This document shows, in pieces, positions 18,439 to 39,535 of a stretch of 39,535 nucleotides of DNA. A program made the position numbers and the translations under genes. The notes beneath the pieces are model-generated. The model was not told the DNA's origin, did not search any database, and was given only the letters and a program-made list of their open reading frames with translations. Location: NCBI GenBank assembly GCA_964485005.1, contig CAZAHX010000001.1:1-39535 (forward strand), read 5' to 3'. This DNA is from an uncultured Acidimicrobiaceae bacterium. Lineage in GTDB: Bacteria > Actinomycetota > Acidimicrobiia > Spongiisociales > ZC4RG35. How positions within the stretch are numbered: position 1 is the first letter of the stretch; the number at the start of each line of letters is the position of its first letter.

Positions 18439-18454
18439 AGTACGCTAGCGTACT
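18439..18454. promoter_or_regulatory. Candidate operator, copy F (AGTAC-GCTAGC-GTACT, palindromic over all 16 nt)
   Basis: About 272 bp upstream of the GTG (18167) that starts the amino-acid ABC / SDR / LLM operon. Confidence 0.55.
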
Positions 18455-18663
18455 GATCACGACCGCGTCGTGTGGATTCGCCAAGATTTCACAGCCAAGG
18501 GCGAGACCGGCATGGTGGCTGTGATGGAAGATCGGGTCGAGGATCCGCGAGCAGGAACGGGGCGCGTCGATACCTCAGTGAGCTCTCTCGTGTTGGGGAC
18601 TCTACGGCCAGCCATCAATCCAGGACCCTTCCCGACTGCGGAGGCAACAGTCCTCGGCGTGCA

Positions 18664-18897: not shown

Positions 18898-18922
18898 CGG
18901 CGGGCCACCCGAGCGGATCGTC

Positions 18923-23178: not shown

Positions 23179-23258
23179 TATGTTCCACGCGACGGAATCA
23201 CGTTCCGAAACTATAACAGCGGGGTTGCACCCGTCCCTCAACGAATCGGAGTTCGGTC

Positions 23259-24104: not shown

Positions 24105-24148
24105 GAGGACGCTCCTCCGGAACCGACCGGTACAGTCAGGTCCCGCCG

Positions 24149-24928: not shown

Positions 24929-26382
24929 CCGCCGGGACGGGAGATGTAATGCCCGGTGGGCTCTCCCACCACCTGGCCGTCGTCGAGAATGCGGTTGCCC
25001 CGCAGGAACACGTGCTTGACACGGGCGGTCAGCTCGTGGCCCTCGAAAGGGGAGTACTCCTGGGTCGACTCGGACCTCGCCGCCTCCACCGTCCACGACT
25101 CATCGGGGTCGAGGAGCACGACGTCGGCATCGAACCCGGGGGCGAGGTCGCCCTTGTTGTCAAGACCGAAACGCCGGGCGGGGTTCCGCGACACCAGCTC
25201 TGCGACCCGGTTGGGCGTAAGGCCCCGGCGGCGACCCTCGCTGAACAGGCCGGCGAGCAGGTACTCGGTCCCTCCGAAGCCGGACTTGGCCTGCCAGATG
25301 TCGTCTGGATCGGAGCCCAGCTTGGTGGCCTCCCGACAGCAGGCGTGGTCGGACACGACCCAGTCGATTTCGCCGGCAGTCACCGCCTCCCATAGCGCCT
25401 CCACGTCGGCGCGGGGACGGATGGGCGGGTTCACCTTCCCGTAGAGCCCCCCGGCATGGTCGAGGTCGGCGAGGAGGTGGCCAACCGTGACCTCCCTTCG
25501 CATGTCGAGCTCGGGAAACACCTTCGCCATGAGACGCGCCGCCTCCACCGCCCGCAACGACGACAGGTGGAGCAGGTTGATGTTGGGGAACGCGGTCACG
25601 TGAGCGAGATAGGCGGCGATGGTGATGGCCAGCCCCTCAGAGTGGGGCGGGCGGGCGGCCGAGTAGGCGGCCAGGCCCCGGAGGTCGGGATCCGCCTCCG
25701 CCATCTCGGTGTATGCGGTCATGATCTCGGCGCTCTCGCAGTGCAGGCTCACCGATATCTGGTCGGCGATGTGGGGATGCGACTCCCGGGCCGCCTGAGC
25801 CTCGCGCATGATGAACTCGAAATGGGCGTAGTCGTAGCGCTCGCCGGGGGACGTCATCAAGAACGAGGCCTGATCGTCGGAGCGGCCGTGGAGGCCGTGA
25901 CCTCCGTAAAACATGAAGATCTTGAAGGAGGGCACCCCGAAATCGTCGATCAGCAGCGGCATCTCGTCGATGTGGCGCCGTTCGATGGGCGCTAGGTGAA
26001 AGGCATAGTCGACGTGGGCGAGGCCCGAGGTGGTTGCGAGCACCTCGGGAAAGAACTCGGCGTAGGGCCCGCCCCTGTTCAAGTAGTACTGGCCGGTCCG
26101 GAAGTACGTCATGGCGGTGGTAGTCCCGCCCTGGGCGGCAGCCCGGCTTTCGCTGACGGCGTCCTCGGACAGGGGGTTGTAGATGCCCCAGTGGCAGTGG
26201 GCATCGACCACACCGGGGAACGCGAGGAGCCCGGCGGCGTCGACCACCTGGGCGTTGTTGGCTTCCAGGTTCGGTCCGATGGCGGCGATCTCTCCGGAGC
26301 GGACGGCAATGTCGGCGGTCTCGGTTGCCGCCGCACCGGGGCGCACCACTTCCGCACCCCGGATCACCAGATCGTATTGCAT
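24925..26382 (-). CDS. Cyclic amidohydrolase, dihydropyrimidinase/D-hydantoinase/allantoinase-like
   Basis: The ORF extends up to 26520. ATG 26382 is preceded by AAGGAGGAG and gives 485 aa. Motifs: GVVDAHCHW (HxH), SFKIFMFYGG (carboxylated-Lys context), VSLHCES, LLHLSS, VSDHACC. Confidence 0.85.
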   Translation of the reverse strand: MQYDLVIRGAEVVRPGAAATETADIAVRSGEIAAIGPNLEANNAQVVDAAGLLAFPGVVDAHCHWGIYNPLSEDAVSESRAAAQGGTTTAMTYFRTGQYYLNRGGPYAEFFPEVLATTSGLAHVDYAFHLAPIERRHIDEMPLLIDDFGVPSFKIFMFYGGHGLHGRSDDQASFLMTSPGERYDYAHFEFIMREAQAARESHPHIADQISVSLHCESAEIMTAYTEMAEADPDLRGLAAYSAARPPHSEGLAITIAAYLAHVTAFPNINLLHLSSLRAVEAARLMAKVFPELDMRREVTVGHLLADLDHAGGLYGKVNPPIRPRADVEALWEAVTAGEIDWVVSDHACCREATKLGSDPDDIWQAKSGFGGTEYLLAGLFSEGRRRGLTPNRVAELVSRNPARRFGLDNKGDLAPGFDADVVLLDPDESWTVEAARSESTQEYSPFEGHELTARVKHVFLRGNRILDDGQVVGEPTGHYISRPGG

Positions 26383-26407
26383 TGCTCCTCCTTGTCTCGG
26401 CGGGGTC

Positions 26408-27808
26408 TCATTCGAACGGCCAGGTAGCCAGGGGACGGTCGGGACCGGCTTCCGCGAGCGCGCGGGCCACGACCCGATTGACGTCGGCGACCACCTCGTC
26501 CATGTCCCAGGCGACGACACGCCCGGACTCGACGATGACCTCGCCGGCCACCATCACCGTCTCCACCTCGGAAGGTCCGACCGCGTAGACGAGATTCGAG
26601 ATAGTCGCCGGGTACGGGTTGAGCGGTGCCCGACGTCTATCGAGCACCACCAGGTCGGCCTGTTTGCCGACCTCGATCGAGCCCAGGGTTTCCTCCAGGT
26701 GAAGGGCGCGGGCGCCACCCCACGTGGCGAGCTGGAGCATCATTTCGGGGTCGCCGAACGAGGCGTCACCTGCCTCGGCCCGTTGATGGAGGATGGTCGT
26801 CTTCATGGCCTGGAAGAAGTCGTGAGCGTCGTTGGGCTGGTCGGTACCGAGGCCAAGCCGAACACCGGCCTCGACCAAGCCGTTGACCGGGGCGGCCTTC
26901 ATGCCGATGAGCATGTTCGCGCCGGCGCAGAGGGAAACGCCGGCGTCGGCCTCGGCGACAGCCTGGATCTCGGAGTCGTCGAGCCACACCGGGTGGTATC
27001 CGAGGAATCGGTGGTCGAGTATCTCCCAGTCGGCGAGCAAGGTCATCAGGGGCTGGCCGTGCTCCTCGACAGTATGGCTAGCGGCCGCCTCCGAGTAGGA
27101 GATGTGCATGGCGAACCCGGTGTCCGCCTCCACTGCCCAGTCGTGCAGGCCCCGGAGCAGGGGCGGGGTCACCCGATGGGCCGACATCGCCTCGGCTCCA
27201 ACCTGGACCCGGTCGCTGTTCCAGCGGTGCTGGAGCCGGGAGAGCTCCGAACGGGCCAGTTCGAGGTCGTCGTGGCGGTGTGCGGGAACCAGCTCGCTCC
27301 GATCGACCGAAGCCCGGTAGAAGAACCCGCGGAGGCCGGACTCCGTCAATGCCCGCAGAGTGCCGTCGGCGGCACCTTCCAGGCCCCGTCGAGCGGCCTG
27401 GCTGTCGGTGGTGGTCGTCACCCCCGAGAGCATCAGCTCGGTGAGAGCGAGCCGGGCACCGGAGTAAGCGGCCTCTTCGTCCATCGCCTCTCGGATGGCG
27501 GTCGCCATCGCCGCCCCGGCGGGATCTCCACCGACCAGAAAGCGGTCGCCGCCCAGGCCCCGGGTGAGCGATGAGACCAGATGAGCGTGAGTGTTGACGA
27601 AACCCGGGATCACCACCCGGTCTGCCAGGTCACGTACCTCGACGGCAGCGGGAACCGGTCCGGCGGCGGCTGCCACGCCAACGATGCGGCCGCCGGCTAT
27701 GGATACCCTCCCGGGATCGATGACGCGGGGGGCAGGTCCCATGGTCAGGACCATCGACCCTTCCAGGACGAGGTCGACCGGCTCGGGCTCGGGGAGGTCA
27801 GGCGACAC
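26408..27808 (-). CDS. Amidohydrolase-superfamily deaminase/hydrolase (cytosine/guanine deaminase, chlorohydrolase, MtaD-like group)
   Basis: The ORF extends up to 28033. An in-frame GTG at 27808 overlaps the upstream stop by 11 bp and gives 466 aa. Motifs: IPGFVNTHAHL, FAMHISYSE, LGLGTDQPN. Confidence 0.85.
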   Translation of the reverse strand: MSPDLPEPEPVDLVLEGSMVLTMGPAPRVIDPGRVSIAGGRIVGVAAAAGPVPAAVEVRDLADRVVIPGFVNTHAHLVSSLTRGLGGDRFLVGGDPAGAAMATAIREAMDEEAAYSGARLALTELMLSGVTTTTDSQAARRGLEGAADGTLRALTESGLRGFFYRASVDRSELVPAHRHDDLELARSELSRLQHRWNSDRVQVGAEAMSAHRVTPPLLRGLHDWAVEADTGFAMHISYSEAAASHTVEEHGQPLMTLLADWEILDHRFLGYHPVWLDDSEIQAVAEADAGVSLCAGANMLIGMKAAPVNGLVEAGVRLGLGTDQPNDAHDFFQAMKTTILHQRAEAGDASFGDPEMMLQLATWGGARALHLEETLGSIEVGKQADLVVLDRRRAPLNPYPATISNLVYAVGPSEVETVMVAGEVIVESGRVVAWDMDEVVADVNRVVARALAEAGPDRPLATWPFE

Positions 27809-29552
27809 TGTCTGAGGGATCCTCCTGGTGGGCGGGAAGGTCGCCGTCGATGGCGCGGTCTCCCGTGGGTATCCCCAGCGCCCACTTGCCGTAGACACCG
27901 CCGTTGCGGTCCCAGTTGAGGCCGATCTGGGCAGCCATCGCCGAGATGTCCCGAAAGTGTCGCTGGACCGGGTTCGTGTGAGAGAGCCCGCTCGCTCCCA
28001 TCTGCCGGACCAGGCGATGGACGGCATCGACACACTGGCGGGTCAGCCAGGCCCGATCACGCATCGTCTCCACCCGTTCCCGGGGATTCAGCAGGTCACC
28101 CGCCCGGGCCCGGCGGACCAGCGTGTCGGTGATCCCTTCCACCAGCCGGGCCGCCGCCCCGATCTGAGCGGCCGACTCAGCCACTCGCAACTGGACCGGG
28201 ACCGACTCGGCGATGCGGTTGGCGAAGATGGCACCGATACGGGCCCGGGTTGCCTCCAGGTAGTCCTCGAGGGCGCCCTCGGCCGCACCCAGGATCGGGC
28301 CGAGGAGGATGGTGCCGAAGGCGGGGCCCAGCTCCATGCGATACACGGGGTGCTCGTTGGCGTCGGCCCCGGGAGGGTTCGAGCCCAGGAGCTCGAGAAA
28401 GCCCAGCGTACGATGGTCGGGAACGAACACCGGCTCGGCGAGAAGCGCCTGCTTGCTCCCGGTGCCCTGCAATCCGGATACATGCCAGTCGTCGACGATC
28501 TCGTACTCGGACGCGGGGATGAGGCATTGGCGCAACACTGCCGGACCGCTGCCTTCGAGGCCTTCAACGGGGGCAGGGACGATGACCCACTGGGCGTGGT
28601 CGATGCCGCTGGCGAACCGCCATCCCCCGTCGACCAGAAAGCCGCCGTCCACCGGCACTGCCTTACCTGAGACCCGGGCTGATCCGGTGGCGATGAGAAC
28701 GTCATCGTCGGTGCTCCACACCTCTTGCTGGGCCTGGTCCGCATAGCGGCCCACCATGACGGAGTGGGTGGTGACCACCGCGGCGATCCATCCGGTGGAC
28801 CCGCATGCCCGGGCGAGCAGGCGCGCCGCCTCGATCTGGACGCCCCACTCCACTTCGATCCCTCCGTAGCGCTCGGGCCGAAAGAGGCGGAACAAGCCGG
28901 CGGCCTTGAGCTCGTCGATGGTCTCGCCGGGCAGCTCGCCGAGCTCCTCCGTGTCCCGCGCTCTCTCGCGAATTCCGGTCACCAGGTCGCGGACGTTGTC
29001 CAGCACGGATTCGGCCACCTCGGTGTGGGCTGCGGTTGTCATCGCGGATCTTCTCCTTTGTACATCGGTCTCGACCGGCGGCGCCGGCGGAGAGGTGTGA
29101 AAGCTTCGATTCCAGGACAGGAGCGGGCCGGCCGACGCCACTGACGTCGACAAGACAAGCCCGATCACTACCGTGTGATCCCCGTGCGTCACGACCGAAT
29201 CGACATGGCAGATGGCGTGTCCGACGCTGCCGGCCAGGACGGGCACGCCTTCCTCCCACCCCCACTCCACCTGCTGGAACTTGTCGGGCCGCTTGGACGC
29301 AAAGAGGTAGGCGCTGTTCTGCTGGCCGGGAGCGAGCATCATGAGCCCGAAGGTGTCGCCGCCGACGAGGGCATCGTGGCTGAAGGCCGACCGGTCGATC
29401 GAAACCATGAGGGAGGCGGGATCGTGAGCATGGGGAGATACCGACGTGGCCGTGAACCCGCGGGGTCGACCCAGGTCGTCCTTGCCTGTCACCACGTACA
29501 CGGCCGACGCCACCATGGCCATCGCCTGGCGGAAGAGCTCAGCGGTGGTCAT
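27798..29552 (-). CDS. Single ORF fusing an N-terminal flavin reductase domain to an HsaA/C2-HpaH-type (acyl-CoA-dehydrogenase-fold) flavin-dependent monooxygenase
   Basis: 584 aa from ATG 29552. Residues 1 to about 155 (FRQAMAMVASAVYVVTG...GFTATSVSPHAHDPASLMVSI...GDHTVVIGLV...GPLLSWNRSF) form a flavin_reduct domain. Residues about 171-584 (LRRLPGETIDELKAAGLFRLFRPERYGG...ACGSTGWIAAVV...GGWRFASGIDHAQW...SGLQGTGS...NPVQRHFRD) resemble HsaA-type oxygenases. There is no stop between the two parts. Confidence 0.8.
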   Translation of the reverse strand: MTTAELFRQAMAMVASAVYVVTGKDDLGRPRGFTATSVSPHAHDPASLMVSIDRSAFSHDALVGGDTFGLMMLAPGQQNSAYLFASKRPDKFQQVEWGWEEGVPVLAGSVGHAICHVDSVVTHGDHTVVIGLVLSTSVASAGPLLSWNRSFHTSPPAPPVETDVQRRRSAMTTAAHTEVAESVLDNVRDLVTGIRERARDTEELGELPGETIDELKAAGLFRLFRPERYGGIEVEWGVQIEAARLLARACGSTGWIAAVVTTHSVMVGRYADQAQQEVWSTDDDVLIATGSARVSGKAVPVDGGFLVDGGWRFASGIDHAQWVIVPAPVEGLEGSGPAVLRQCLIPASEYEIVDDWHVSGLQGTGSKQALLAEPVFVPDHRTLGFLELLGSNPPGADANEHPVYRMELGPAFGTILLGPILGAAEGALEDYLEATRARIGAIFANRIAESVPVQLRVAESAAQIGAAARLVEGITDTLVRRARAGDLLNPRERVETMRDRAWLTRQCVDAVHRLVRQMGASGLSHTNPVQRHFRDISAMAAQIGLNWDRNGGVYGKWALGIPTGDRAIDGDLPAHQEDPSDSVA

Positions 29553-29587
29553 GGCGCGTCCCCCCAATCGTCGGCGAACGACCAGGG

Positions 29588-30502: not shown

Positions 30503-30933
30503 AGAGAACCATCCCACCAGACCAGTGGATCTCCGCTGCCAATGACGACCTCCACCACATCTCCGATCACCAGGAAGCGGTCGAGGATGAGCGACCGGAC
30601 GACCGTCTCACAAGCGAGAGCGCACAGAGATCCTTCCACGACAGGGACGCCGGCCAGCAGCGCGTAGTCGAACAAGCTATCAACGGACCCCCAGAAGCCC
30701 GTCGCCAGGGATAGGTGGGATCGCGTGAGTATCGACACCCCGAACCTTTCCCCGAGAGGGAGTTCTTTCGGTAGGGACACCATCACGGAGGGCGGATCGA
30801 CCGAGTAGGAGGCCACGGTGGGGACGACCACCATTGACGCCTCTGTGTCCTCCAACGTCGAGATGGCGGCCGCGGCCGAGGCCATCGCCTCGAGGAACTC
30901 GGCGGGCGCTGTGGCGATAGCGGGTCTCGTCAT
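30481..30933 (-). CDS. Flavin reductase-like (FMN-binding split-barrel) domain protein
   Basis: The ORF extends up to 30978. ATG 30933 forms an ATGA overlap with the upstream membrane-protein stop and gives 150 aa. Motifs: FLEAMASAAAAISTL...SYSVDPPSVMVSL...DRFLVIGDVVEV. Confidence 0.7.
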   Translation of the reverse strand: MTRPAIATAPAEFLEAMASAAAAISTLEDTEASMVVVPTVASYSVDPPSVMVSLPKELPLGERFGVSILTRSHLSLATGFWGSVDSLFDYALLAGVPVVEGSLCALACETVVRSLILDRFLVIGDVVEVVIGSGDPLVWWDGSLYPSEPS

Positions 30934-31619
30934 GGTCGTGCCACCGCCAGGATCACCATCACCACCAGTGCCCCCCACACGAACAGCACGGCCGGGTAGA
31001 CGCCTGGAATCGAAGAGTTGACTGCCGCCAGCCTCTCCGGGGTCTCACCCAACTCGAGCAGCTCGGTCAGGGCAGGTCGGTAACGGGCGGCCGCCACCCG
31101 GATCCACAACCCGGCGGCGATGACCACTCCGAAGAGGAGTGCCTTCAAGGCCAGCCAGGTAGGAGCAAAGGGAACCTGGACCGAGAGGGATGTCACCCCC
31201 ATGACCACGAACGCGACCGAAGCCAGGATTCGCAAGGAGATGTCGGACCGGTTGAAAGAGTCGAGTCTCTCATCTGTCGGCTCCTCCTGCCGCCGCCGAA
31301 AGGCCCAGACCGATGCCGCTACCCAGACCAGCGCCAGGATGGTCACCGCCCAAAGAAGCGCAGCGATCAGGGTGGGGTCGGCCGTCCCGAAACCGAACCC
31401 GGATACGCGAGCCAGACCTAGCGCCACCGGGATCATGAGGATGAGGCTCAGACGGGGTGCCAGGTCCAGGCTCGTCATCATCTTCCGCACCTGCGCCCTC
31501 GCCTCCGGGGTCAGCCCCGGCCGGCGCATGACGAAGCTCCCATAGAAGACCCCGACGTCGATCCCCAGCCACGCGACCAGAAGCAGGATATGGAGGATCA
31601 GCAGACCGTCTCGTGCCAT
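30930..31619 (-). CDS. Integral membrane protein of unknown function (about 6 predicted TM segments)
   Basis: 229 aa from ATG 31619. It has repeated hydrophobic stretches (LLILHILLLVAWLGIDVGVFY, LSLILMIPVALGLA, LLWAVTILALVWVAASVWAF, and others). I recognise no family. Confidence 0.6.
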   Translation of the reverse strand: MARDGLLILHILLLVAWLGIDVGVFYGSFVMRRPGLTPEARAQVRKMMTSLDLAPRLSLILMIPVALGLARVSGFGFGTADPTLIAALLWAVTILALVWVAASVWAFRRRQEEPTDERLDSFNRSDISLRILASVAFVVMGVTSLSVQVPFAPTWLALKALLFGVVIAAGLWIRVAAARYRPALTELLELGETPERLAAVNSSIPGVYPAVLFVWGALVVMVILAVARP

Positions 31620-31709
31620 TCGCCTTCACCTCTCTGGCCTTCCCGGGAAATGTGGCTGATCGGCCCGGTTCCTCTCCCGGACGCGCGCTACACTCGTTTC
31701 AGTGACAGC

Positions 31710-31726
31710 GTTCCGTTCACCGGAAC
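31710..31726. promoter_or_regulatory. Palindrome GTTCCG-N5-CGGAAC in a divergent promoter region (candidate regulator site)
   Basis: Perfect 6-bp arms, about 90 bp upstream of the family-5 SBP ATG (31816). GTTCC(G/A) half-sites also occur in the CoA-transferase/CitE divergent spacer at 23182-23207. Confidence 0.3.
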
Positions 31727-31815
31727 CGTTAGGGAGCTTAGCATTCGTGAGGCCGGGGAGTCACCCCCACGGAGTTGCGGATACTGGCCAATACCGACGC
31801 ACGGGAGGAAGGCGA

Positions 31816-33444
31816 ATGCGACAAAGATCGAGCCGATGGATGGTTGTATTGATGGCGATGGCAGTGGTCGTCGCCGGTTGCGGCCCGGCCGCCGAGGAGA
31901 CAACGACTACCGGAGTCGAGCTCCCCGCGACCGAGGCGCCCGAGACCACCACGACGACGGAGGCGCCGGCTACCACCGAGCCCACGACCCCTCCGGAAGC
32001 GACAGCGATATCGGTGGGCATGGGCCTGATGCCTCCTTCGGGCGTTCCCTGGACCGGCGCGGGGTCACCCGGCCAGTATGTGTGGAGCCAGATCTTCGAC
32101 GCCCTCACCTACATCGCCCCCGACGGCACCGTCCAGCCAGGTCTGGCGACCGGGTGGACGTCGGTGGACGAGAACACCTGGGAGTTCACGCTGCAGGAAG
32201 GCGTCAGCTTCGCCAACGGAGAGCCGTTCAACGCCGACGCCGTGGTGGCCACGTTCGACGTCCTTCTTTCAGAGGAGGGGCGGGCGACCTACGCAGCCAG
32301 CGTGGGGAATTACGGGTTCGTCACGTCTGTCGAGGCGATTGACGAATCGACGGTTCGTGTCATCACCGAGACGCCCAACCCGCTTACCCCCAATGCCCTG
32401 TCGCTCGCCTACATCGTGCCTCCGGCGGAGTTCGCCGACGTCGGCGCCGAAGGCTTCGCCTCCTCGCCGTTAGGAACGGGCCCGTATCAGACGACGGCGT
32501 GGAGCGATCAGGAGATAACGCTTGAAGCCTGGGATGGATCATGGCGCGGGGTGCCAGCCATCTCGACCGTCACTTTCATCAACCTGGGCGACGCGGCGGC
32601 ACGTGTCCAGGCCTTGCAGTCGGGTCAGGTCCAGATCGCCCACTCGGTCAGCCCTGACCAGATCGCCGCCCTCGAGGGTGAGGGATTCGGTGTCTTCAGT
32701 GGTACCCGCGGCTCGATGATGTCCCTCGCATTCATCGCCAACGAAGGGGGACCGCTCGCCGAGCAGGCGGTCCGTCAGGCGATGAACTATGCGGTCGACG
32801 TGCAGTCGATCGTCGACGAGCTTCTCCTCGGCTACTCGTCTCCGGGGATGTGGCCACCGGAGGGTGTGACGGGACATGACCCGTCGCGGCCACCGTACCC
32901 CTACGATCCGGACATGGCACGGATGTTGCTGGCCGACGCCGGCTACGCCGACGGGTTCGACATGGTCGCCGAAGTCACCGTTGGCTCTTTCCCCAGCGAC
33001 GCCGACATCTACGAGGCGATGGCCGGCTTCCTGACGGAGGTCGGCATAAACGTCGAGCTGCGCCAGATCGACTTTGCCGGCGAGTGGCTTCCCAAGTTCC
33101 TCGGCACCGACGGAGCCGACTGGGAAGGCGACGCCTTCGGGTTGTCTTGGAACGCGGCGCCACTGATGGATGCCATCAGGCCCTTCTCGTTCTTCAGTTG
33201 CGGGCACGGCAACGAGTTCTTCTGCGACGAGGAGGCCGAGTCCCTCATCAATGAAGTGTCAGCCACCTTCGACGTGGCCGCCCGTGACGCCCTGATGGCT
33301 GACCTGCTCGACATGACCAGAGAGAACCCTTCTGCCCTGTGGCTGGTCGTTACCCCGGAGCTCTGGAGCTTCGACAGCAGCGTGCAGGGCTTCTCGGTCG
33401 ACAACTTCAACATCCGGTTCGAATCGGTGACGGTGGGTGGCTGA
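31816..33444 (+). CDS. ABC transporter substrate-binding lipoprotein, family 5 (Dpp/Opp/Nik-type)
   Basis: The ORF starts at 31702. ATG 31816 is preceded by GGGAGGAAGG and gives 542 aa. Signal peptide plus lipobox VVAGC, then a Thr/Pro/Glu-rich tether, then an SBP_bac_5 body (YIAPDGTVQPGLATGW...ENTWEFTLQEGVSFANGEPFNADAV). Confidence 0.85.
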   Translation: MRQRSSRWMVVLMAMAVVVAGCGPAAEETTTTGVELPATEAPETTTTTEAPATTEPTTPPEATAISVGMGLMPPSGVPWTGAGSPGQYVWSQIFDALTYIAPDGTVQPGLATGWTSVDENTWEFTLQEGVSFANGEPFNADAVVATFDVLLSEEGRATYAASVGNYGFVTSVEAIDESTVRVITETPNPLTPNALSLAYIVPPAEFADVGAEGFASSPLGTGPYQTTAWSDQEITLEAWDGSWRGVPAISTVTFINLGDAAARVQALQSGQVQIAHSVSPDQIAALEGEGFGVFSGTRGSMMSLAFIANEGGPLAEQAVRQAMNYAVDVQSIVDELLLGYSSPGMWPPEGVTGHDPSRPPYPYDPDMARMLLADAGYADGFDMVAEVTVGSFPSDADIYEAMAGFLTEVGINVELRQIDFAGEWLPKFLGTDGADWEGDAFGLSWNAAPLMDAIRPFSFFSCGHGNEFFCDEEAESLINEVSATFDVAARDALMADLLDMTRENPSALWLVVTPELWSFDSSVQGFSVDNFNIRFESVTVGG

Positions 33445-34468
33445 TCGCGAGGGGCTCAGCCGCTCCCCCGTCGAGGAATTGTCGGTCCCGGCCTCGCATG
33501 AGGCCGGGACCGACATCATCAGGGACACCGGCTATGGACGCTACGCACTCCACAAGCTCGGTTATCGGATACTTCAGCTGGTCGGGCTGGTTCTGGGAAT
33601 CACGACCCTCCTCTTCTTCCTCTTGCGCGTCACCGGTGACCCGGCCAGTGTCCTGGTGGGTGATCTCGCCTCCGCTGAGGACGTAGCCCGGGTTCGGCGC
33701 TTCTACGGCCTCGACGAACCGCTGATCGTCCAGTACTTCAAGTTCATCGGCCAGGCAGTGCAGCTCAACTTCGGCAACTCCCTGCGCTCATTCACCGATG
33801 CGTTCGACCTCGTGCTGTCCAAGGTCCCGGCGACGATGATCCTCGCCGCCGCCGCCGTCATGTTGAATCTGATAATCGCCTTGGCGTTCGGGACCTGGCT
33901 CGGCTACCGACCGGAGCGACCAGATCGCCGCCTCGGATTGGCCGCCGTTCTCGTCAGCCAGGGGATCCCCGGGTTCGTCATCGGACTTGTGCTGATCCAG
34001 CTCGTAGCCGTCGAATGGAGGCTGCTTCCGAGCATCGGCTTCGACGGATTACGGAGCCTGATCCTGCCGTCGATCACCCTCGCCTCCTTTCTCCTGCCCC
34101 GAGTCATCCGCCTGACCGCAGCCAACGTGGACCAAGCGATGCGACAGAACTACGTCCGTACAGCCCGGGCATCGGGAGCCTCGTCGCGAGCGGTCATGTG
34201 GCGACACGTCCTACCCAATGCCGTCGTCGGGACCGTCGCCCTGGTGGGTGTCCAGTTCGGGTTCCTGCTGTCGGGCTCGTTGATCACCGAGACGCTGTTT
34301 GCATGGCCGGGCATGGGCCTTCTACTGATCGAGTCGGTGCGGGGTCTGGACTTCCCGGTCGTCCAGGCGGCGATCGCGGTCGTTGCCATCCTCGTGTTCG
34401 CTGTCAACACGCTCACCGACCTCGCTTTTCCTCTCCTGGATCCCCGGCTGCGGAGAGCCCGGGCATGA
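33437..34468 (+). CDS. ABC transporter permease (DppB/OppB-type)
   Basis: LHKLGYRILQLVGLVLGITTLLFFLLRVTGDP is the typical N-terminus, and an EAA-like loop YVRTARASGAS is present. The start is uncertain. The only in-frame canonical starts are GTG 33437 and TTG 33479, and both lie upstream of or inside the stem-loop. Confidence 0.85.
   Translation: MADREGLSRSPVEELSVPASHEAGTDIIRDTGYGRYALHKLGYRILQLVGLVLGITTLLFFLLRVTGDPASVLVGDLASAEDVARVRRFYGLDEPLIVQYFKFIGQAVQLNFGNSLRSFTDAFDLVLSKVPATMILAAAAVMLNLIIALAFGTWLGYRPERPDRRLGLAAVLVSQGIPGFVIGLVLIQLVAVEWRLLPSIGFDGLRSLILPSITLASFLLPRVIRLTAANVDQAMRQNYVRTARASGASSRAVMWRHVLPNAVVGTVALVGVQFGFLLSGSLITETLFAWPGMGLLLIESVRGLDFPVVQAAIAVVAILVFAVNTLTDLAFPLLDPRLRRARA
33480..33515. 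repeat. Perfect 16-bp GC-rich stem with 4-nt loop immediately downstream of the SBP gene
   Basis: tgtcggtcccggcctc-gcat-gaggccgggaccgaca, beginning 36 nt after the SBP stop (33444). It is followed by tcatcagg with no U tract. Confidence 0.75.
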
Positions 34469-35346
34469 CCACACCCGAGACTCAGATCGACGGGACCGGC
34501 TTGAGCCGGCGAGCCCTCAGGTCAACCTACCGGAGGGTCCCTGGTCTGCTCGTGACCGGCCTGGTGGGAGCTGTGATGGTGGTGATCTTGACCTTCTGGG
34601 GCAGCAACCTGGCCGGATTCGAGCCTGGAGCCCAATCGCTCAGCAACCGGCTACAGCCGCCCCTCGAAGGCAGGCACCTCCTGGGTACAGACCGGCTCGG
34701 ACGCGACGTCTTCTCCCGGGTGACCGCCGGGTTCTCATGGTCGCTCCCCGTAGCGCTGGTGGCCACAACCATCGCCTCCACTCTTGGCACCTTGGCCGGC
34801 GTCGCTGCCGGGTGGAACGACGGCTGGGTGAGGACTCTCCTGGTCCGCTTCATGGATATCGCCATCTCGTTTCCCTACCTGGTGCTGGCAGTGGCGATCA
34901 TCGCCGTCACCGGCCGCGGTTTCTGGGCGCTCACTCTGGTGCTCGGACTCGTGTCATGGGTGTCGTTCGCCCGGGTCGTCTACGCCGAGACCCAGCAGAT
35001 CCGCAGCCGCGAGTACGTTCTGGCCGCCCGTCTCATGGCTATCCCCTCCTGGCGCATCCTCGCCACGTATGTGCTGCGTGGCCTCCGTCACACCATCGCC
35101 GTCATGTATGCCTTCATCTTCGCCGACCTGCTTGTCGCCGAGGCGGGCCTCTCGTTTCTAGGCGTCGGGGCTCCGCTCGGCGAGCCGTCGTGGGGCAACA
35201 TGCTGTCCGACTCTCGCCAACAGCTCTTCACGGCGCCATGGCTGATGTACGGACCGGCGATGGCGGTAGTGCTGGCGGTCCTCACGGCCAACCTCATCGG
35301 TGACGGGCTCATTCAACGCTGGGGGAGAGGCACCTCTCAACAATGA
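34465..35346 (+). CDS. ABC transporter permease (DppC/OppC-type)
   Basis: ATG 34465 forms an ATGA overlap with the upstream stop and gives 293 aa. Motifs: HLLGTDRLGRDVFSRV and REYVLAARLMA (EAA loop). Confidence 0.9.
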   Translation: MTTPETQIDGTGLSRRALRSTYRRVPGLLVTGLVGAVMVVILTFWGSNLAGFEPGAQSLSNRLQPPLEGRHLLGTDRLGRDVFSRVTAGFSWSLPVALVATTIASTLGTLAGVAAGWNDGWVRTLLVRFMDIAISFPYLVLAVAIIAVTGRGFWALTLVLGLVSWVSFARVVYAETQQIRSREYVLAARLMAIPSWRILATYVLRGLRHTIAVMYAFIFADLLVAEAGLSFLGVGAPLGEPSWGNMLSDSRQQLFTAPWLMYGPAMAVVLAVLTANLIGDGLIQRWGRGTSQQ

Positions 35347-35359
35347 AGGACGGAACAAC

Positions 35360-35734
35360 ATGAGTGAAGCGGACGGCTCGACGATCCTCGAACAGATCAG
35401 GGAAGCCGGGAGGCGGGTTCTACCAATGCACGAATATCTCGCCGAGCATCACCCGGAGGGCCTCGATGGATACAACTCCTTCTTGACGTCGAGCATCTAC
35501 GACAACGGCTCATTGGAGCCGAGGTATCGAGAGATGGTGTTGGCATGCATCTGCGTCGCGGTCGGCTCGTCGACTCCGGTGATCGCAGCTCATTGCCGCA
35601 AGGCCCTCGGATTTGGTGCCACCCGCGAGGAACTGATCCAGGCGATCGAGATGACTGCTGCGGTCATGGCGACCAGAGGCATGGGGGCCGGGCTCCTCGC
35701 CCTTCTCGAAGCCGACGACGGGGACAACCCATGA
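35360..35734 (+). CDS. Carboxymuconolactone decarboxylase (CMD/AhpD-like) family protein
   Basis: ATG 35360, about 9 nt after AAGGA, gives 124 aa. Motifs: LEPRYREMVLACICVAVGSSTPVIAAHCRKALGFGATREELIQAIE. Confidence 0.8.
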   Translation: MSEADGSTILEQIREAGRRVLPMHEYLAEHHPEGLDGYNSFLTSSIYDNGSLEPRYREMVLACICVAVGSSTPVIAAHCRKALGFGATREELIQAIEMTAAVMATRGMGAGLLALLEADDGDNP

Positions 35735-36561
35735 TCGGAGCAGGCCAGCCCTTAGGAACGTCGAAGCGGCTCTCGTACACCATGTCGGCCGACCGTTACA
35801 CCGGTCGGGTCCTCTACGTGACGTTTCGGACCCCGGCCGATCTTGGCCAGTGGCTTCCCCCTCCGCTGGTGGCCGCGGACCCACATGAGGGCTTCTTGAA
35901 AGTGTACGAGTTGAAGCGTCGCCCCGAACACGGGGAGCCGTATCCGCCATCCTTCAGCCAGTACCGGGAGGTGTGCGTGACCGTGCTCGCTGGACCGCCC
36001 GGCGAGGCGCTGCGTCACTACAACCTCTTCATGTGGGTGAACCGGGACTGGGCGACCTATAAGGCCCGAGAGGCTCTCGGCTGGCCCAAGAAACTGGCGG
36101 ACATAGAAGTCACCACCACCTTTCCCGCTTCTGGCCGCTACGACGCCGATGTGGGGACCCGAGCTTTCGCCGCCGACGTGGTGCGTCATGGCTATCCGTT
36201 GATACGTGTCCGAGCAGCTCTTGATCCAGACGCCCCCGAGCAACCCACTCCTCCATTCAACGGTTTCTACACGGTTCGGCACATCCCTGCCCCTATCGGC
36301 GGCGATGCGATAAGGGAGCTGCTGGTCATCGAGACCCGGGACGGCTGGTTCGGCGACGGAACATACGGCCAGGCTACGGTCGAGTTGGGTGAGGCTCCCG
36401 ACGAGGAGCTCGGTTTGCTGGCCCCCGCCGAGGTGACCGGCTGCGTCCTGCGTGATGTCGGCTGGGTCCTTCCCGGCTGGCCGGCCCGCCGTCAGGCGAC
36501 GTTGGATCCCTGGCCCGTCGAAGTCGGAGAAGCACAACCCGAGAAGGAGAAGATCACATGA
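35731..36561 (+). CDS. Acetoacetate decarboxylase (ADC) family protein
   Basis: ATG 35731 forms an ATGA overlap and gives 276 aa. Motifs: LYVTFRTPADLGQWLPPPL...YREVCVTVLA...YNLFMWVNRDWATYKAREALGWPKKLADI. Confidence 0.75.
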   Translation: MIGAGQPLGTSKRLSYTMSADRYTGRVLYVTFRTPADLGQWLPPPLVAADPHEGFLKVYELKRRPEHGEPYPPSFSQYREVCVTVLAGPPGEALRHYNLFMWVNRDWATYKAREALGWPKKLADIEVTTTFPASGRYDADVGTRAFAADVVRHGYPLIRVRAALDPDAPEQPTPPFNGFYTVRHIPAPIGGDAIRELLVIETRDGWFGDGTYGQATVELGEAPDEELGLLAPAEVTGCVLRDVGWVLPGWPARRQATLDPWPVEVGEAQPEKEKIT

Positions 36562-37475
36562 CCGCCTACCGAGGAGTGTTCCCCGCCATCGTGGCACCCC
36601 AGGACGACGACAACGAGATCCTCTGGGACGCGATGGGAGAGTTGGCCCGGCATCAGGTCGGGCAGGGGGCAGCTGGATTCCTGGTCAACGGCCACACCGG
36701 CGAGCACATGCTGTTGTCGGGCGAGGAGAGGCGGACGGCGCTGCACACCGTTCGGGACGCCGTCGGTGTCTCGGTGCCGATCGTGGCCGGTGTCCACGTG
36801 CAGGCCGCGAGGAAGTTCGCGGGCCATGCCGAGTCCGCAGCAGAGCTGGGTGCCGACGCGATCCTCATCTTCTCACCGTTCTCCTTCGCCCGTGGAGCGT
36901 TTCAGTTCGCCCCCGAGGCAGTGATCGGCTTCTATCAGCGAGCGGCCGAGGAGTCACCAGTACCGCTGTTCTTCATGCAGTACCGCCCGCAAACCAACCT
37001 GATGATGCCCCGAGACGTGCTCACGGCGGTAGCGAGTCTGCCCAATGTGATAGGCATCAAGCAGGAGGTCGAGGACAACATCGAGTACGAACGAGACTGG
37101 CACGCCCTCAAGGAAGCGAGCCCCGATCTGTCGGTGCTGACCGCCACCGAGCGGGGACTGCTGGGCAACTACGTGGTGGGCGCCGACGGCTGCACGATCG
37201 GCCTAGCCAACTTCGTCACTCCGGTGAAGGCGGTCCAGGATGCAGTGTGGAACGGTGACCTGGCGGCCGCCCGCGCCGCCGCCGCCAAACTCCGCCCTCT
37301 CGCCGACGCCATCTACCGACCCCCCTCCTACCGATGGTCCGCCCGACTCAAGTACGCCATGCACACCGCCGGGCTCATCCCGACACCGAGCATACGTTCG
37401 CCGCTCTTCCCGGCGACGACACCGGAACGAAAGGTCATCGATGCCGCGGTGGCGTCCCTGAAGGTGGCTGCATGA
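36558..37475 (+). CDS. Dihydrodipicolinate synthase family (class I aldolase) protein, second copy
   Basis: ATG 36558 forms an ATGA overlap and gives 305 aa. Motifs: FLVNGHTGEHMLLSGEERR, FFMQYRPQ, VIGIKQE. Confidence 0.8.
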   Translation: MTAYRGVFPAIVAPQDDDNEILWDAMGELARHQVGQGAAGFLVNGHTGEHMLLSGEERRTALHTVRDAVGVSVPIVAGVHVQAARKFAGHAESAAELGADAILIFSPFSFARGAFQFAPEAVIGFYQRAAEESPVPLFFMQYRPQTNLMMPRDVLTAVASLPNVIGIKQEVEDNIEYERDWHALKEASPDLSVLTATERGLLGNYVVGADGCTIGLANFVTPVKAVQDAVWNGDLAAARAAAAKLRPLADAIYRPPSYRWSARLKYAMHTAGLIPTPSIRSPLFPATTPERKVIDAAVASLKVAA

Positions 37476-38134
37476 AGTGGGTCGACGACCGGTCATATTT
37501 CGACACCCTGGAGGAGATGGTTGCCCCCCGGCACTCTGCGCTTCTGGTCATCGACCAGCAGAACGACTTCACTCACCCGGACGGCTACTACGCCAGATTC
37601 GGGCTCGATCTGAGCATCGTCCAGGAGATGACACCCAACCTGAACGCCCTGACGCACGCGGCGAGGGCAGCCGGAGTCATGGTCATCTGGTCACAGAATG
37701 TGATCAAGCCGGGATTCGTGTCCGACTCACCGGTGTGGCTGGCCGCTCACGCCAAGATGGGCCTCAAACACCTCGACCAGACCGACTTCTACACCATGGA
37801 AGGCACCTGGGGCGCCGAGATCTTCGACGATTGCCACGTCGACGAGACCGACATCGTCATCCCCAAGCTCCGCAGCACCGTATTCCACAACACCCCGCTC
37901 GAAGCCTTGCTCCGGGCCCACGGCATCGAAACACTCGTGCTCGCCGGCCAGGTCACTGAAGGGTGCGTGGACAACACGATTCGTGGTGCCCGAGACCGCG
38001 ACTTCTACACGCCCCTAGTCGCCGACGCAGTTGGGTCTACCAGCCAGGAGCGTCACGATCGGGTCATGGCCATCTGGACCGGACGAATCCCCACCCCCTC
38101 TACCAATGACCTGGTCGAGCTCTGGAGCACCTGA
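37472..38134 (+). CDS. Isochorismatase-family cysteine hydrolase (amidase-type)
   Basis: ATG 37472 forms an ATGA overlap and gives 220 aa. Motifs: SALLVIDQQNDF (Asp), IVIPKLRSTVF (Lys), LVLAGQVTEGCVDNT (Cys nucleophile). Confidence 0.85.
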   Translation: MKWVDDRSYFDTLEEMVAPRHSALLVIDQQNDFTHPDGYYARFGLDLSIVQEMTPNLNALTHAARAAGVMVIWSQNVIKPGFVSDSPVWLAAHAKMGLKHLDQTDFYTMEGTWGAEIFDDCHVDETDIVIPKLRSTVFHNTPLEALLRAHGIETLVLAGQVTEGCVDNTIRGARDRDFYTPLVADAVGSTSQERHDRVMAIWTGRIPTPSTNDLVELWST

Positions 38135-39113
38135 CCTCGCCGCCTCCACCAGTGACGTGGTGCTGGCCGTCGAGGGCCTACGGGTCGAGTTCCCCATGGG
38201 TGACGGCTCGTGGCGCCCGGTAGTGGATGGCATTTCGTTCGAGATGCGCCGGGGCGAGACTTTGGGGGTCGTAGGAGAATCCGGCTCCGGCAAGACAATG
38301 ACCGCCCTCTCCCTGATGGGGCTCGTGCCGCGCCCAGGACGGATGACGGCGGGGACGATCGTCCTGAACGGGCGGCCGGTCCACGCCCTGTCGATGAGGG
38401 AGTGGACCAGGGTGCGTGGCCGGGACGTCGCCATGGTCTTTCAAGATGCCCTCAGCGGTTTGAACCCCGTGCGCACCATCGGGTCGGCGCTCATCGAGTC
38501 GATCCGGCGACACCAGCCGCTCACCAACCCCCAGGCCAAAGAGCTGGCGATCGACACACTCAGGGCAGTCGGTATCCCCCGGCCCAACGAGCGGCTCAGC
38601 GTGTACCCCCACCAGTTGTCGGGTGGTATGCGCCAACGCGTGATGATCGCCCTCGCGATCGCCAATCATCCCTCCGTGATAATCGCCGACGAGCCCACGA
38701 CGGCCCTCGACGCCACCATCCAGGCCCAGATTCTCCAGCTCCTGGGTGAACTCACAAGAGAAAGGTCGCTCGTGCTGATCACCCACGACCTCGGCGTCGC
38801 GGCAGCTCGCTGTGACCGCATCGCCGTCATGTATGCCGGACGACTGGCCGAGGTCGGAAACGCCGACCTCGTCCTGACCCGCCCCCGTCACCCTTACACG
38901 GTCGGCTTGATCGATGCCGTCCCCACGTTTACGGCTGAACGCCGTCCACTAGTGCCAATACCGGGATCACCGCCCAGCATCGACGATGTCCTTCCCGGAT
39001 GTGCGTTCGCCCCCCGTTGCTTCAACGCGCTCGACCGGTGCCCAACCGACCGGCCGCTCCTGGAGGAAGTCGAGGGTCGCACCATCGCCTGCTGGAACCC
39101 TCATCATGGGTGA
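38106..39113 (+). CDS. ABC transporter ATP-binding protein (DppD/OppD-type)
   Basis: Walker A GESGSGKT, signature LSGGMRQRVMIALA, Walker B VIIADEPTTALD, and a C-terminal oligopeptide-type domain with Cys residues. The start is ATG 38106 (29-nt overlap with the hydrolase gene) or GTG 38157/38160. Confidence 0.9.
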   Translation: MTWSSSGAPDLAASTSDVVLAVEGLRVEFPMGDGSWRPVVDGISFEMRRGETLGVVGESGSGKTMTALSLMGLVPRPGRMTAGTIVLNGRPVHALSMREWTRVRGRDVAMVFQDALSGLNPVRTIGSALIESIRRHQPLTNPQAKELAIDTLRAVGIPRPNERLSVYPHQLSGGMRQRVMIALAIANHPSVIIADEPTTALDATIQAQILQLLGELTRERSLVLITHDLGVAAARCDRIAVMYAGRLAEVGNADLVLTRPRHPYTVGLIDAVPTFTAERRPLVPIPGSPPSIDDVLPGCAFAPRCFNALDRCPTDRPLLEEVEGRTIACWNPHHG

Positions 39114-39535
39114 ACCGTTGCTGTCCCTCCATGACGTGACTGTCCGGTTCAAGGTCGGGAGAGAGATCCTTACCGCGGTCGACGATGTGACGCTGGGGGT
39201 GGAGCGCGGCTCGACGCTGGGCCTGGTGGGTGAGAGCGGGGCAGGCAAGTCCACCCTCGGGCTGGCCATCGTCCGGGCGCACCGACCTGACCGGGGAAAA
39301 ATCGTTTTCGATGGGGCCGATATCACCGCCATGCCGGAACGGGAGCTGCGCTCGTATCGGCGCCGGGTGCAGATGATCTTCCAGGATCCCTATGCCAGCA
39401 TCGACCCGCAGATGAAGGTGGCAGCAGTGATCGCCGAGCCCATCAGGATCCATCGCCTCGAGGCGCGGGAAGCCATCATGGACCGGGTGGCAGAGCTGTT
39501 GCGTGCGGTTGGTCTTCCCGCCGCCGCTGCCGGGC
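39106..39535 (+). CDS. ABC transporter ATP-binding protein (DppF/OppF-type), 5' part only; runs off the window
   Basis: Not in the ORF track because it is open-ended. ATG 39106 overlaps the upstream stop by 8 nt. My translation reads MGEPLLSLHDVTVRFKVGREILTAVDDVTLGVERGSTLGLVGESGAGKSTL...RRRVQMIFQDPYASIDP. Confidence 0.9.
   Translation, partial: MGEPLLSLHDVTVRFKVGREILTAVDDVTLGVERGSTLGLVGESGAGKSTLGLAIVRAHRPDRGKIVFDGADITAMPERELRSYRRRVQMIFQDPYASIDPQMKVAAVIAEPIRIHRLEAREAIMDRVAELLRAVGLPAAAAG

Follow-up and report, generated by a model that had tools for sequence, protein, structure and literature searches.

The window analysed here is a whole 39,535-bp NCBI contig (CAZAHX010000001.1) from an uncultured Acidimicrobiaceae bacterium. 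At its right-hand end, nine consecutive open reading frames (ORFs) on the + strand (31816-39535) encode the components of a Dpp-type ATP-binding cassette (ABC) importer together with four enzymes, whose genes lie between the permease and the ATPase genes. The last gene stops at the contig end. All nine products match the expected Pfam families well above the gathering score, so that the genes, families and coordinates reported in a first-pass annotation of this DNA hold. The genes of the array, which include those for a substrate-binding protein (SBP) and an enzyme of the acetoacetate decarboxylase (ADC) fold, are:

31816..33444, + strand: SBP_bac_5 substrate-binding lipoprotein, cluster C, Dpp/Nik/opine type (Pfam PF00496, 241 bits, E 2.3e-71)
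33437..34468, + strand: permease 1, DppB/NikB type (BPD_transp_1 and BPD_transp_1_N)
34465..35346, + strand: permease 2, DppC/NikC type (BPD_transp_1)
35360..35734, + strand: CMD-family (AhpD-fold) protein, 124 aa (Pfam CMD, 39 bits vs 23)
35731..36561, + strand: ADC-fold Schiff-base enzyme, Swit_4259/Sbi00515/MppR branch (Pfam PF06314, 97 bits)
36558..37475, + strand: DHDPS/NAL-family class I (lysine Schiff-base) pyruvate aldolase-type enzyme, not DapA (Pfam PF00701, 122 bits)
37472..38134, + strand: isochorismatase-fold cysteine amidohydrolase, RutB/biuret-hydrolase clade (Pfam Isochorismatase, 125 bits)
38106..39113, + strand: ATPase 1, DppD/OppD type (ABC_tran and oligo_HPY)
39106..39535, + strand: ATPase 2, DppF/OppF type, cut by the end of the window and contig (ABC_tran)

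The junctions across this array range from -29 to +13 nt. The SBP and permease 1 genes overlap by 8 nt (GTG 33437; TTG 33479 is an alternative start of permease 1), and the two permease genes share an ATGA overlap. Permease 2 is separated from the CMD gene by a 13-nt gap with the ribosome-binding site AAGGACGG, and the CMD/ADC, ADC/DHDPS and DHDPS/hydrolase junctions are again ATGA overlaps. The hydrolase and ATPase 1 genes overlap by 29 nt if the latter starts at ATG 38106 or are 22-25 nt apart if it starts at the alternative GTG 38157/38160, and the two ATPase genes overlap by 8 nt. Direct reading of the junctions thus agrees with the earlier claims that spacing is tight from the second permease onwards and that the enzyme genes are packed with the transporter genes as one translationally coupled unit.

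Five of the products were looked up in a public protein collection, where they are present as called proteins with boundaries identical to those listed above. An independent Logan assembly of run SRR12687321 (L033) contains the same PermB-PermC-CMD-ADC-DHDPS-hydrolase-ATPase stretch. These independent gene calls and the independent assembly rule out a mis-assembly or a gene-calling artefact. The first-pass annotation had named internal promoters and terminators as the signs of separate transcription. Consensus scans, which are weak for high-GC Actinobacteria, yielded no sigma-70-like promoter in 30500-39535 and seven terminator-like hairpins against 3.6 expected, all weak; five are inside the operon, every one of them intragenic. 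We find no internal signal worth believing, which is not strong evidence given the weakness of such scans. A search of 30800-39535 for riboswitches and other RNA families gave no Rfam match.

The component set of a PepT-family transporter is complete, with a cluster-C SBP, two BPD_transp_1 permeases and two ATPases; the oligo_HPY domain of the second ATPase is seen in its full-length ortholog of 332 aa at locus L001. The contiguous A-B-C-D-F gene order is broken by the four enzyme genes between C and D. The SBP gene is preceded by a ribosome-binding site (GGAGGAAGG) ahead of ATG 31816, and its product begins with the lipobox VVAGC followed by a Thr/Pro-rich linker. The SBP lies below every NCBIfam equivalog cut-off: the best model is Opp5A_nikA (142 bits vs 600), and it scores 82 vs 1005 bits for DppA, 106 vs 594 for GsiB and 79 vs 800 for CntA, while tests against the OppA and NikA equivalogs were likewise negative. 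The best models for the other components are Opp2B for permease 1 (254 bits, cut-off 350) and Opp2C for permease 2 (216 bits, cut-off 300), and ATPase 1 scores 322 bits with the DppD model (cut-off 541). The transport genes are thus assigned as generic PepT-family components that fail every NCBIfam equivalog cut-off and resemble nickel/Opp2-type models best. The nearest solved relatives of the SBP in the PDB, all distant, are 5u4o, AccA, AgaA, YliB/GsiB, NikA and DppA. As these include opine, nickel-chelate and glutathione binders besides DppA, and no equivalog cut-off is reached, the leaning of the first-pass annotation towards a non-generic importer is supported.

The ADC-fold protein is assigned to the ADC-like superfamily by its fold and by a conserved Lys and Glu, and scores only 21 bits with the model of true ADCs (NF002614, cut-off 150). 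Its invariant residues include the GWPKK motif (K120/K121) and E80, the Glu of QY.E, which align with the FPKK and QYRE motifs of Sbi00515. We searched the PDB with an AlphaFold (AF2) model of the protein (pLDDT 83) using Foldseek. The best match was 5upb (Swit_4259; E 4e-19, TM 0.77-0.83), followed by Sbi00515 (6eej/4zbo/4zbt) and MppR (4jm*) down to E 1e-15, with true ADCs at E ~1e-12; a profile search gave the same ranking. We take Swit_4259, Sbi00515 and MppR to be not decarboxylases but lysine Schiff-base hydratases or aldolase-dehydratases that act on pyruvate and 2-oxo acids. As a member of this branch, the ADC-fold protein is unlikely to be a decarboxylase, and by analogy it is a putative 2-oxo-3-enoate hydratase or aldolase-dehydratase. 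Its 83 relatives at >=46% identity are nearly all metagenomic.

The first-pass annotation had described the CMD and ADC-like products as two possible decarboxylases or Schiff-base enzymes. For the ADC-fold protein, the Schiff-base half of this description stands and the decarboxylase half is unlikely, since the Swit_4259/Sbi00515/MppR group is closer. The CMD protein lacks the CxxC motif of AhpD and matches only the general CMD Pfam domain, with 16 bits against a cut-off of 156 for the PcaC equivalog (TIGR02425). Its best PDB match is 2q0t (E 3e-15), and it resembles uncharacterised PcaC-like proteins. Across 18 orthologs 20 residues are invariant, two His among them. It is a putative decarboxylase or isomerase, or a putative partner subunit of the ADC-fold enzyme.

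The DHDPS-like protein belongs to the DHDPS/NAL class I aldolase superfamily and scores 88 bits with the dapA equivalog (TIGR00674, cut-off 206). The Lys of its VIGIKQEVED segment, invariant in 17 orthologs, aligns with the IIGIKEATGD segment of DapA chains, which presumably holds the Schiff-base Lys161. Compared with the DapA chains 6p90/3qze, it has GHTGE for GTTGE, SPFSF for TPYYN and RPQT for PGRT, and so differs at the positions that we take to be the DapA-specific Thr44, Tyr107 and Arg138 (E. coli numbering). It is the most conserved member of the cassette, with 119 of 305 residues invariant across two phyla, and it forms a tight clade at >=64% identity (64-88% across phyla), beyond which identity falls abruptly to 47%. 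Several JGI records, among them orthologs P0231, P0237 and P0244, call this protein '4-hydroxy-tetrahydrodipicolinate synthase'. This name is probably a propagated annotation error, because the score is far below the dapA cut-off and the DapA-specific residues are absent.

The last of the four enzymes had been called an isochorismatase-type hydrolase, and the PDB and NCBIfam matches narrow this assignment to a RutB/biuret-hydrolase-like protein. Its best PDB matches are RutB (8bkd, E 2e-25) and biuret hydrolase (6xjm, E 2e-20), with weaker ones to 3ot4/3uao, which we take to be NicF (2e-5), and to isochorismatases (~6e-6). Its nearest relatives are the ureido-type amidases RutB, biuret hydrolase and triuret hydrolase, and it falls below the cut-offs of both RutB (TIGR03614, 105 bits vs 378) and BiuH (92 vs 370). 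The Asp (IDQQND), Lys (K.R) and Cys (EGCV) of the catalytic triad are in register with those of RutB and invariant in 15 orthologs. Its gene is surrounded by the CMD, ADC-like and DHDPS-like genes and not by a rut operon.

As the first-pass annotation had suggested searching other genomes for the same arrangement, we collected neighbourhoods by exact-protein look-ups and one scan of species-representative genomes, and mapped the window proteins onto them by tblastn. The nine-gene split order recurs in eight further metagenomic loci: L001 (L001/L002), L010, L011, L012 (cut), L013, L015, L018 and L019. Their products share 52-81% amino acid identity with those of the window, and the projected gaps are -50 to +73 nt at every junction. 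The sources are metagenome-assembled genomes (MAGs) of Acidimicrobiia or Acidimicrobiaceae, a MAG labelled 'bacterium OM1' and one contig labelled Kiloniellales. We read all these hosts as actinobacterial-type genomes because the SBPs of all split-operon orthologs carry the lipobox and the Thr/Pro-rich linker. The Kiloniellales-labelled contig (L010, CAXMSN010000089.1) holds a complete split operon with 62-77% identity to the window; it was rejected as an alphaproteobacterial example since its SBP has this actinobacterial-style N-terminus, and the contig is probably mis-binned.

The four enzyme genes also occur in the same order outside any transporter operon, in Steroidobacteraceae (L003/L014, L022, L023, L025), a Proteobacteria MAG (L017), a TARA scaffold (L005) and Woeseiaceae (L007, L016, L021), where the products are 47-72% identical to those of the window. 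Outside the split operon, the cassette is flanked by genes for TonB-dependent receptors, MFS or SSF carriers, LysR regulators and an acyl-CoA ligase. In Woeseiaceae, the cassette is followed by a LysR gene, a homolog of an orphan membrane protein gene (memb229, see below) and an unsplit operon of SBP, two permeases and a fused ATPase, with 34-52% identity to the transporter of the window. Conversely, the cultured Egicoccus sp. AB-alg2 carries the orthologous transporter (47-61% identity) as contiguous genes, and no cassette was found within 10 kb of it. The neighbours there encode memb229, an HbpS-like protein, an FAD_binding_2 enzyme, an alpha/beta-hydrolase, a hydantoinase-like hydrolase, a cyclase and IclR.

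These distributions indicate that the conserved and portable unit is the four-enzyme cassette and not the split transporter, because the cassette occurs without ABC genes or beside an unsplit transporter, and the transporter is unsplit in Egicoccus. The split operon appears to be the derived state; the simplest explanation is that an Acidimicrobiia-type lineage gained the cassette once, between dppC and dppD, and has retained it. The earlier proposal that the insertion defines a dedicated importer is therefore borne out in part: the arrangement is conserved, but it is not a transporter-bound unit, as either half also occurs without the other. Because the orthologous transporter of Egicoccus is unsplit with no cassette within 10 kb, the cassette alone does not define the cargo of the transporter.

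Insertion of enzyme genes at the permease/ATPase junction may be a recurrent actinobacterial layout. A Propionibacteriales MAG (L009/L024) contains a second, independent split Dpp-type operon on the - strand (~8813-14350), in the order permease-permease-ADC-like (28% identity)-Amidohydro_2-ATPase-ATPase. The same contig also has genes for an FAD_binding_2 protein, a CN_hydrolase and an ADC-like protein (57%) in a row. Rhizobial homologs of the ADC-fold protein (L026-L030, 49-50% identity) are not part of a cassette; they sit with genes for Amidohydro_2, IclR, an AMP-binding protein, a CN_hydrolase and a Liv-type ABC transporter. Examination of these rhizobial contexts for a characterised pathway identified no substrate.

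Upstream of the SBP gene, the window carries divergent genes and a candidate operator:

30930..31619, - strand: orphan membrane protein memb229, 229 aa, divergent; a conserved companion of the transporter and the cassette
31710..31726, no strand assigned: palindrome GTTCCG-TTCAC-CGGAAC in the divergent intergenic region, candidate operator
27798..29567, - strand: flavin reductase fused to an HsaA/p-hydroxyphenylacetate-hydroxylase-C2-like oxygenase (Pfam Flavin_Reduct and Acyl-CoA_dh_N/2)
26408..28033, - strand: TRZ/ATZ-type amidohydrolase, deaminase/chlorohydrolase family (Amidohydro_1, 161 bits)
24925..26520, - strand: allantoinase/hydantoinase/dihydropyrimidinase-like cyclic amidohydrolase (TIGR03178, 226 bits vs 358)

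The memb229 gene adjoins all the split loci that reach far enough upstream (L019 starts within permease 1). Homologs are present at L001, L007, L010-L013, L015, L016, L018, L021-L023, L025 and L032, which include the Egicoccus, Woeseiaceae and Steroidobacteraceae loci, and they accompany the SBP_bac_5 transporter and/or the cassette in two phyla. The protein has no Pfam or NCBIfam match, and its 117 homologs are all unnamed. Its AF2 model (pLDDT 95.5) consists of seven helices, and a fold search returned no PDB match, the best being GPCR-like noise at E 0.4. The invariant residues are H10, W17, G19, D21, G23, F25, R41, D52, R56 and K159.

The palindrome occurs once in the window, where 0.06 occurrences are expected, and an alignment of the window with L001, L010, L011, L013 and L018 revealed a conserved block, GACAGCGTTCCGCTGAGCGGAAT..TTAGG..(C/T)TAGC. 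The palindrome is likely an operator, and the candidate regulators are the IclR protein encoded at 24149-24928 and the MarR protein encoded in the operon tail of the relatives.

The oxygenase fusion has an acyl-CoA-dehydrogenase fold and scores 323 bits with the HsaA model (cut-off 450). Its orthologs (57-62% identity) occupy the same position in L001, L010 and L011, where the memb229 and TRZ/ATZ-type genes are syntenic as well. The oxygenase has 589 aa with the N-terminal flavin-reductase domain in the window, and 413 aa without this domain in L001 (3794-5035). The best NCBIfam model for the TRZ/ATZ-type protein is 5'-deoxyadenosine deaminase (209 bits vs 522), and 8-oxoguanine deaminase also matches; orthologs are encoded in L001, L010, L011, L013, L015 and L018. 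Orthologs of the hydantoinase-like protein occur in L011, L012, L013, L015 and L019 (59-70%) and in Egicoccus (L032, 63%). The divergent oxygenase and TRZ/ATZ-type genes, which are conserved neighbours, and the recurrent hydantoinase-like gene are putative members of the system. Taken at their longest ORFs, the two amidohydrolase genes would run 113-236 nt into their neighbours, and their true starts are therefore probably internal, in the case of the TRZ/ATZ-type gene further downstream.

The window ends before the point at which the operon of L001 continues past ATPase 2 with 4-nt overlaps (14374-20251). This tail encodes an Ald_Xan_dh/MoCoBD large subunit (best model glyceraldehyde dehydrogenase alpha, 595 bits), a Fer2 (2Fe-2S) subunit, MarR, an alpha/beta-hydrolase, an HbpS-like protein and a flavocytochrome-c/TcuA/KstD-like FAD_binding_2 protein. 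Parts of such a tail recur in L010, L011, L013, L015, L019 and Egicoccus.

Elsewhere in the window, a + strand cluster at 10652-13747 encodes a 370-aa protein without a Pfam match, a second DHDPS-family protein and an ornithine cyclodeaminase/mu-crystallin protein, and is reminiscent of hydroxyproline or cyclic imino-acid catabolism. The region 18923-24928 encodes a luciferase-like monooxygenase, MmgE/PrpD, a cyclase of the kynurenine-formamidase family, a family III CoA-transferase, an HpcH/CitE-like lyase and IclR. The CoA-transferase and lyase resemble those of itaconate/C5-dicarboxylate catabolism; the PrpD and cyclase genes are syntenic in L001, and the IclR and cyclase genes recur beside the Egicoccus transporter. 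The GC content dips to 0.58-0.60 at 2000-5000 and 16000-19000, compared with 0.64-0.69 elsewhere in the window, and genes on the - strand for an ABC transporter of the polar-amino-acid type (SBP_bac_3, permease and ATPase) lie at the second dip. These low-GC stretches may be foreign DNA.

We propose, as a reading that is somewhat favoured, that the nine-gene operon couples a Dpp/Nik/opine-type importer to the catabolism of one non-proteinogenic organic acid bearing an amide or ureido group by the four enzymes. The lipoprotein SBP and the BCDF components would import this compound or a close precursor. The RutB/biuret-hydrolase-like enzyme would strip the compound of a carbamoyl or amide group; ammonia and perhaps CO2 would be set free, and an enamine or 2-oxo-acid skeleton would be exposed, which the CMD-fold protein would decarboxylate or isomerise. 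The ADC-fold enzyme, of the lysine Schiff-base type like Swit_4259/Sbi00515, would interconvert a 2-oxo-3-enoate and a 4-hydroxy-2-oxo acid, and the DHDPS-fold class I aldolase would cleave the latter to pyruvate and an aldehyde or acid. Such an aldehyde could be oxidised by the molybdenum aldehyde-oxidoreductase-like pair encoded downstream in the relatives. One Acidimicrobiia-type lineage would have acquired the portable cassette at the permease/ATPase boundary of the transporter operon, and in other lineages the cassette would be coupled to different uptake systems. Every enzymatic step of this scheme is inferred; what can be read at the sequence level is the packed array, the conserved order and spacing, the family and fold assignments, and the intact catalytic residues. 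These last are invariant across phyla (Asp/Lys/Cys of the hydrolase, Lys120/Glu80 of the ADC-fold protein and the Lys of GIKQE in the DHDPS-fold protein).

The ultimate substrate is possibly an N-heterocycle or a cyclic amide or ureide, perhaps on an amino-acid- or peptide-like scaffold; we would put this at clearly less than an even chance. It is suggested by the conserved neighbours, namely the TRZ/ATZ-type deaminase, the hydantoinase-like ring hydrolase, the HsaA-like hydroxylase and the flavocytochrome-c-type FAD enzymes, and an amino-acid-like scaffold would suit a Dpp-type binding protein. A bolder proposal, which we make tentatively and likewise at less than an even chance, is that the cassette and memb229 constitute an undescribed route for an abundant marine nitrogen metabolite (a ureido compound, cyclic amide or N-heterocycle conjugate) in marine Acidimicrobiia, Woeseiaceae and Steroidobacteraceae. 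In this route, an ADC-fold hydratase and a DHDPS-fold aldolase would replace the canonical pair, and the cassette would be spliced into its own importer.

Several observations weigh against the coupled import and catabolism of one amide- or ureido-bearing acid. All four enzymes are far below every curated equivalog cut-off, and their reaction assignments are therefore analogies. The order of the reactions is taken from family chemistry, the role of the CMD protein in the pathway is a guess, and no ring-cleavage dioxygenase adjoins the operon. Since the orthologous transporter is also found without the cassette, several steps may lie between the compound that is imported and the one on which the cassette acts. 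Moreover, the neighbourhood genes differ between phyla, and every cassette carrier that we found is an uncultured MAG or a metagenome contig.

Four other explanations are less well supported than this general model. The transporter might be a generic di-/oligopeptide or glutathione-type permease and the four enzymes unrelated passengers recombined between dppC and dppD. Such an origin would agree with the best scores of the transport genes, which are on generic Dpp/Opp/Nik/Gsi models, with DppA among the solved SBP relatives, and with the portability of the cassette, which also exists without ABC genes just as the orthologous transporter exists without the cassette. It is nevertheless quite improbable: an insertion with overlapping start and stop codons has been maintained in >=9 loci at 52-81% identity, the Woeseiaceae cassette again adjoins a homologous Dpp-type transporter (unsplit) and memb229, and the SBP scores below all peptide-binder equivalog cut-offs. 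The fact that the best NCBIfam models for the SBP and permeases are the nickel types NikA/Opp2/Opp1, with matches to the CntA/CntC staphylopine models too, raises the possibility of nickel- or opine-type metallophore or metal-chelate uptake, in which the enzymes would degrade or recycle the ligand to free the metal. NikA and other nickel binders are also among the PDB relatives of the SBP, and TonB-dependent receptors flank the cassette in three gammaproteobacterial contexts. All these scores are, however, far below the equivalog cut-offs, and the fetched neighbourhoods contain no metal-responsive regulator, metallophore synthase or opine dehydrogenase. The neighbours are instead typical of carbon and nitrogen catabolism (deaminase, hydantoinase-like hydrolase, hydroxylase and aldehyde oxidoreductase), and we regard metal recycling as very improbable.

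The cassette could also be the lower pathway for a nitrogen-free aromatic or phenolic compound, resembling the tautomerase/decarboxylase, hydratase and aldolase steps of meta-cleavage, in which the hydrolase would act on an ester, a vinyl ether or a C-C bond and not on an amide. The ADC-fold protein is closest in fold to Swit_4259, whose gene is part of a cluster for the degradation of aromatics, and the DHDPS family includes the NahE-type hydratase-aldolases. An HsaA/p-hydroxyphenylacetate-hydroxylase-like oxygenase is a conserved neighbour, KstD/flavocytochrome-c-like FAD enzymes recur nearby, and ADC-like homologs pair with Amidohydro_2 proteins (LigI/LigJ/decarboxylase family) in the Propionibacteriales MAG (L009) and in Hoeflea (L028). 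We consider a nitrogen-free substrate unlikely, as the hydrolase is far closer to RutB and BiuH (E 2e-25 and 2e-20) than to isochorismatases (~6e-6), two amidohydrolases of N-heterocycle type are among the conserved neighbours, and no extradiol or intradiol dioxygenase is adjacent. Finally, the enzymes may serve biosynthesis or salvage and make a non-proteinogenic amino acid or a cofactor from a precursor that the transporter takes up, in the manner of MppR in the enduracididine pathway. The ADC-fold protein is structurally close to MppR and to the aldolase-dehydratase Sbi00515, and DHDPS-family enzymes have a biosynthetic role in the formation of lysine. This is hardly probable at all, since genes for a PLP-dependent partner of the MppP/MppQ type, a nonribosomal peptide synthetase (NRPS), an exporter or resistance are all absent, the genes linked to the cassette encode importers, outer-membrane receptors and LysR/IclR/MarR regulators typical of catabolic operons, and an ammonia-releasing hydrolase fits catabolism.

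Searches of the literature for the combination of CMD, ADC, DHDPS and isochorismatase-type hydrolase returned nothing relevant, those for the 'acetoacetate decarboxylase-like superfamily' only enduracididine and other unrelated papers, and those for 5UPB, Swit_4259 and Sbi00515 no usable paper. We also know of no nicotinate, picolinate, isonicotinate, pyrimidine Rut, cyanuric acid, creatinine, hydroxyproline, opine or siderophore pathway with this enzyme set. The statement in the first-pass annotation that the four enzymes do not form a described pathway is consistent with these searches, in which no paper naming the set was found. The cassette is a compact module under strong purifying selection, as seen in the invariant catalytic residues and the 64-88% identity of the DHDPS-like protein across phyla, and all the lineages in which we found it are uncultured marine or sediment groups, Woeseiaceae and Acidimicrobiia among them. 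These groups are abundant in marine and sediment settings, and much of their use of organic nitrogen is uncharted. The physical splice into the transporter is an argument that the molecule imported is also the one broken down. Four of the proteins (the SBP, the hydrolase and both Schiff-base enzymes) are small and soluble and offer a handle for function discovery, and the module is a tractable target in the search for catabolic pathways of marine organic nitrogen. If correct, the proposed model would assign a physiological function to the non-decarboxylase members of the ADC superfamily, a branch that is poorly understood.

Among known systems, those nearest to single members of the cassette differ in sequence and context. 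The hydrolase shares the isochorismatase fold and an aligned Asp-Lys-Cys triad with RutB, BiuH and TrtA, its best PDB and NCBIfam matches. Unlike in the Rut pathway, no rutA or rutC-G gene is adjacent, the score is 105 bits against the RutB cut-off of 378, and the partners are Schiff-base enzymes absent from the Rut and cyanuric-acid pathways. The ADC-fold protein has the same fold as Swit_4259 (5upb), Sbi00515 (4zbo/4zbt/6eej) and MppR (4jm3), at TM 0.71-0.83, with the Lys in G[WF]PKK and the Glu of QY.E, but is only 19-24% identical to them and has another gene context (an aromatic cluster for Swit_4259 and antibiotic biosynthesis for MppR).

At the level of pathways, lower routes that combine a hydratase with a class I aldolase are known from NahE-type enzymes and from the 2-oxopent-4-enoate hydratase/4-hydroxy-2-oxovalerate aldolase of meta-cleavage. 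The cassette would follow the same logic, from a 2-oxo-enoate via a 4-hydroxy-2-oxo acid to pyruvate and an aldehyde, and has a DHDPS-family protein with the DapA-aligned Lys. It differs in that hydration and decarboxylation would be carried out by the ADC and CMD folds and in that an amidohydrolase is integral, and no sequence-level orthology to NahE was established. Pyridine-ring and cyclic-imide routes, such as the hxn nicotinate pathway of Aspergillus nidulans and bacterial imide metabolism, use a Mo-hydroxylase, a flavin monooxygenase, an ene-reductase, a cyclic imide hydrolase and an amidase. The neighbours of the cassette provide an analogous set with the MoCo oxidoreductase-like pair, the HsaA-like monooxygenase, FAD enzymes, the hydantoinase-like hydrolase and the amidase; this likeness is one of enzyme classes only, with no orthology shown, and those routes lack the trio of ADC-fold, DHDPS-fold and CMD proteins.

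The layout as a whole is best compared with PepT-family (TC 3.A.1.5) importers that have linked catabolic enzymes, such as acc (agrocinopine) and aga (agropinic acid) of Agrobacterium and ddpXABCDF of E. coli. As in these systems, a cluster-C SBP_bac_5 protein, two permeases and two oligo_HPY ATPases are encoded in one operon with enzymes, which in acc, aga and ddp process the non-peptide compound that has been taken up. The closest solved SBPs include AccA and AgaA, although the window SBP is distant from such binders (E ~1e-32, partial coverage, below every equivalog cut-off). The enzyme genes here occupy the middle of the operon, between those of the permeases and the ATPases, and not one of its ends, and they encode another, uncharacterised set of enzymes. 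It is common for a substrate-specific ABC importer to be encoded together with catabolic enzymes. The layout is a curiosity and not a conceptual surprise: a familiar principle is met here with an uncharacterised module, in an unusual but recurrent arrangement that places the enzymes inside the transporter cassette.

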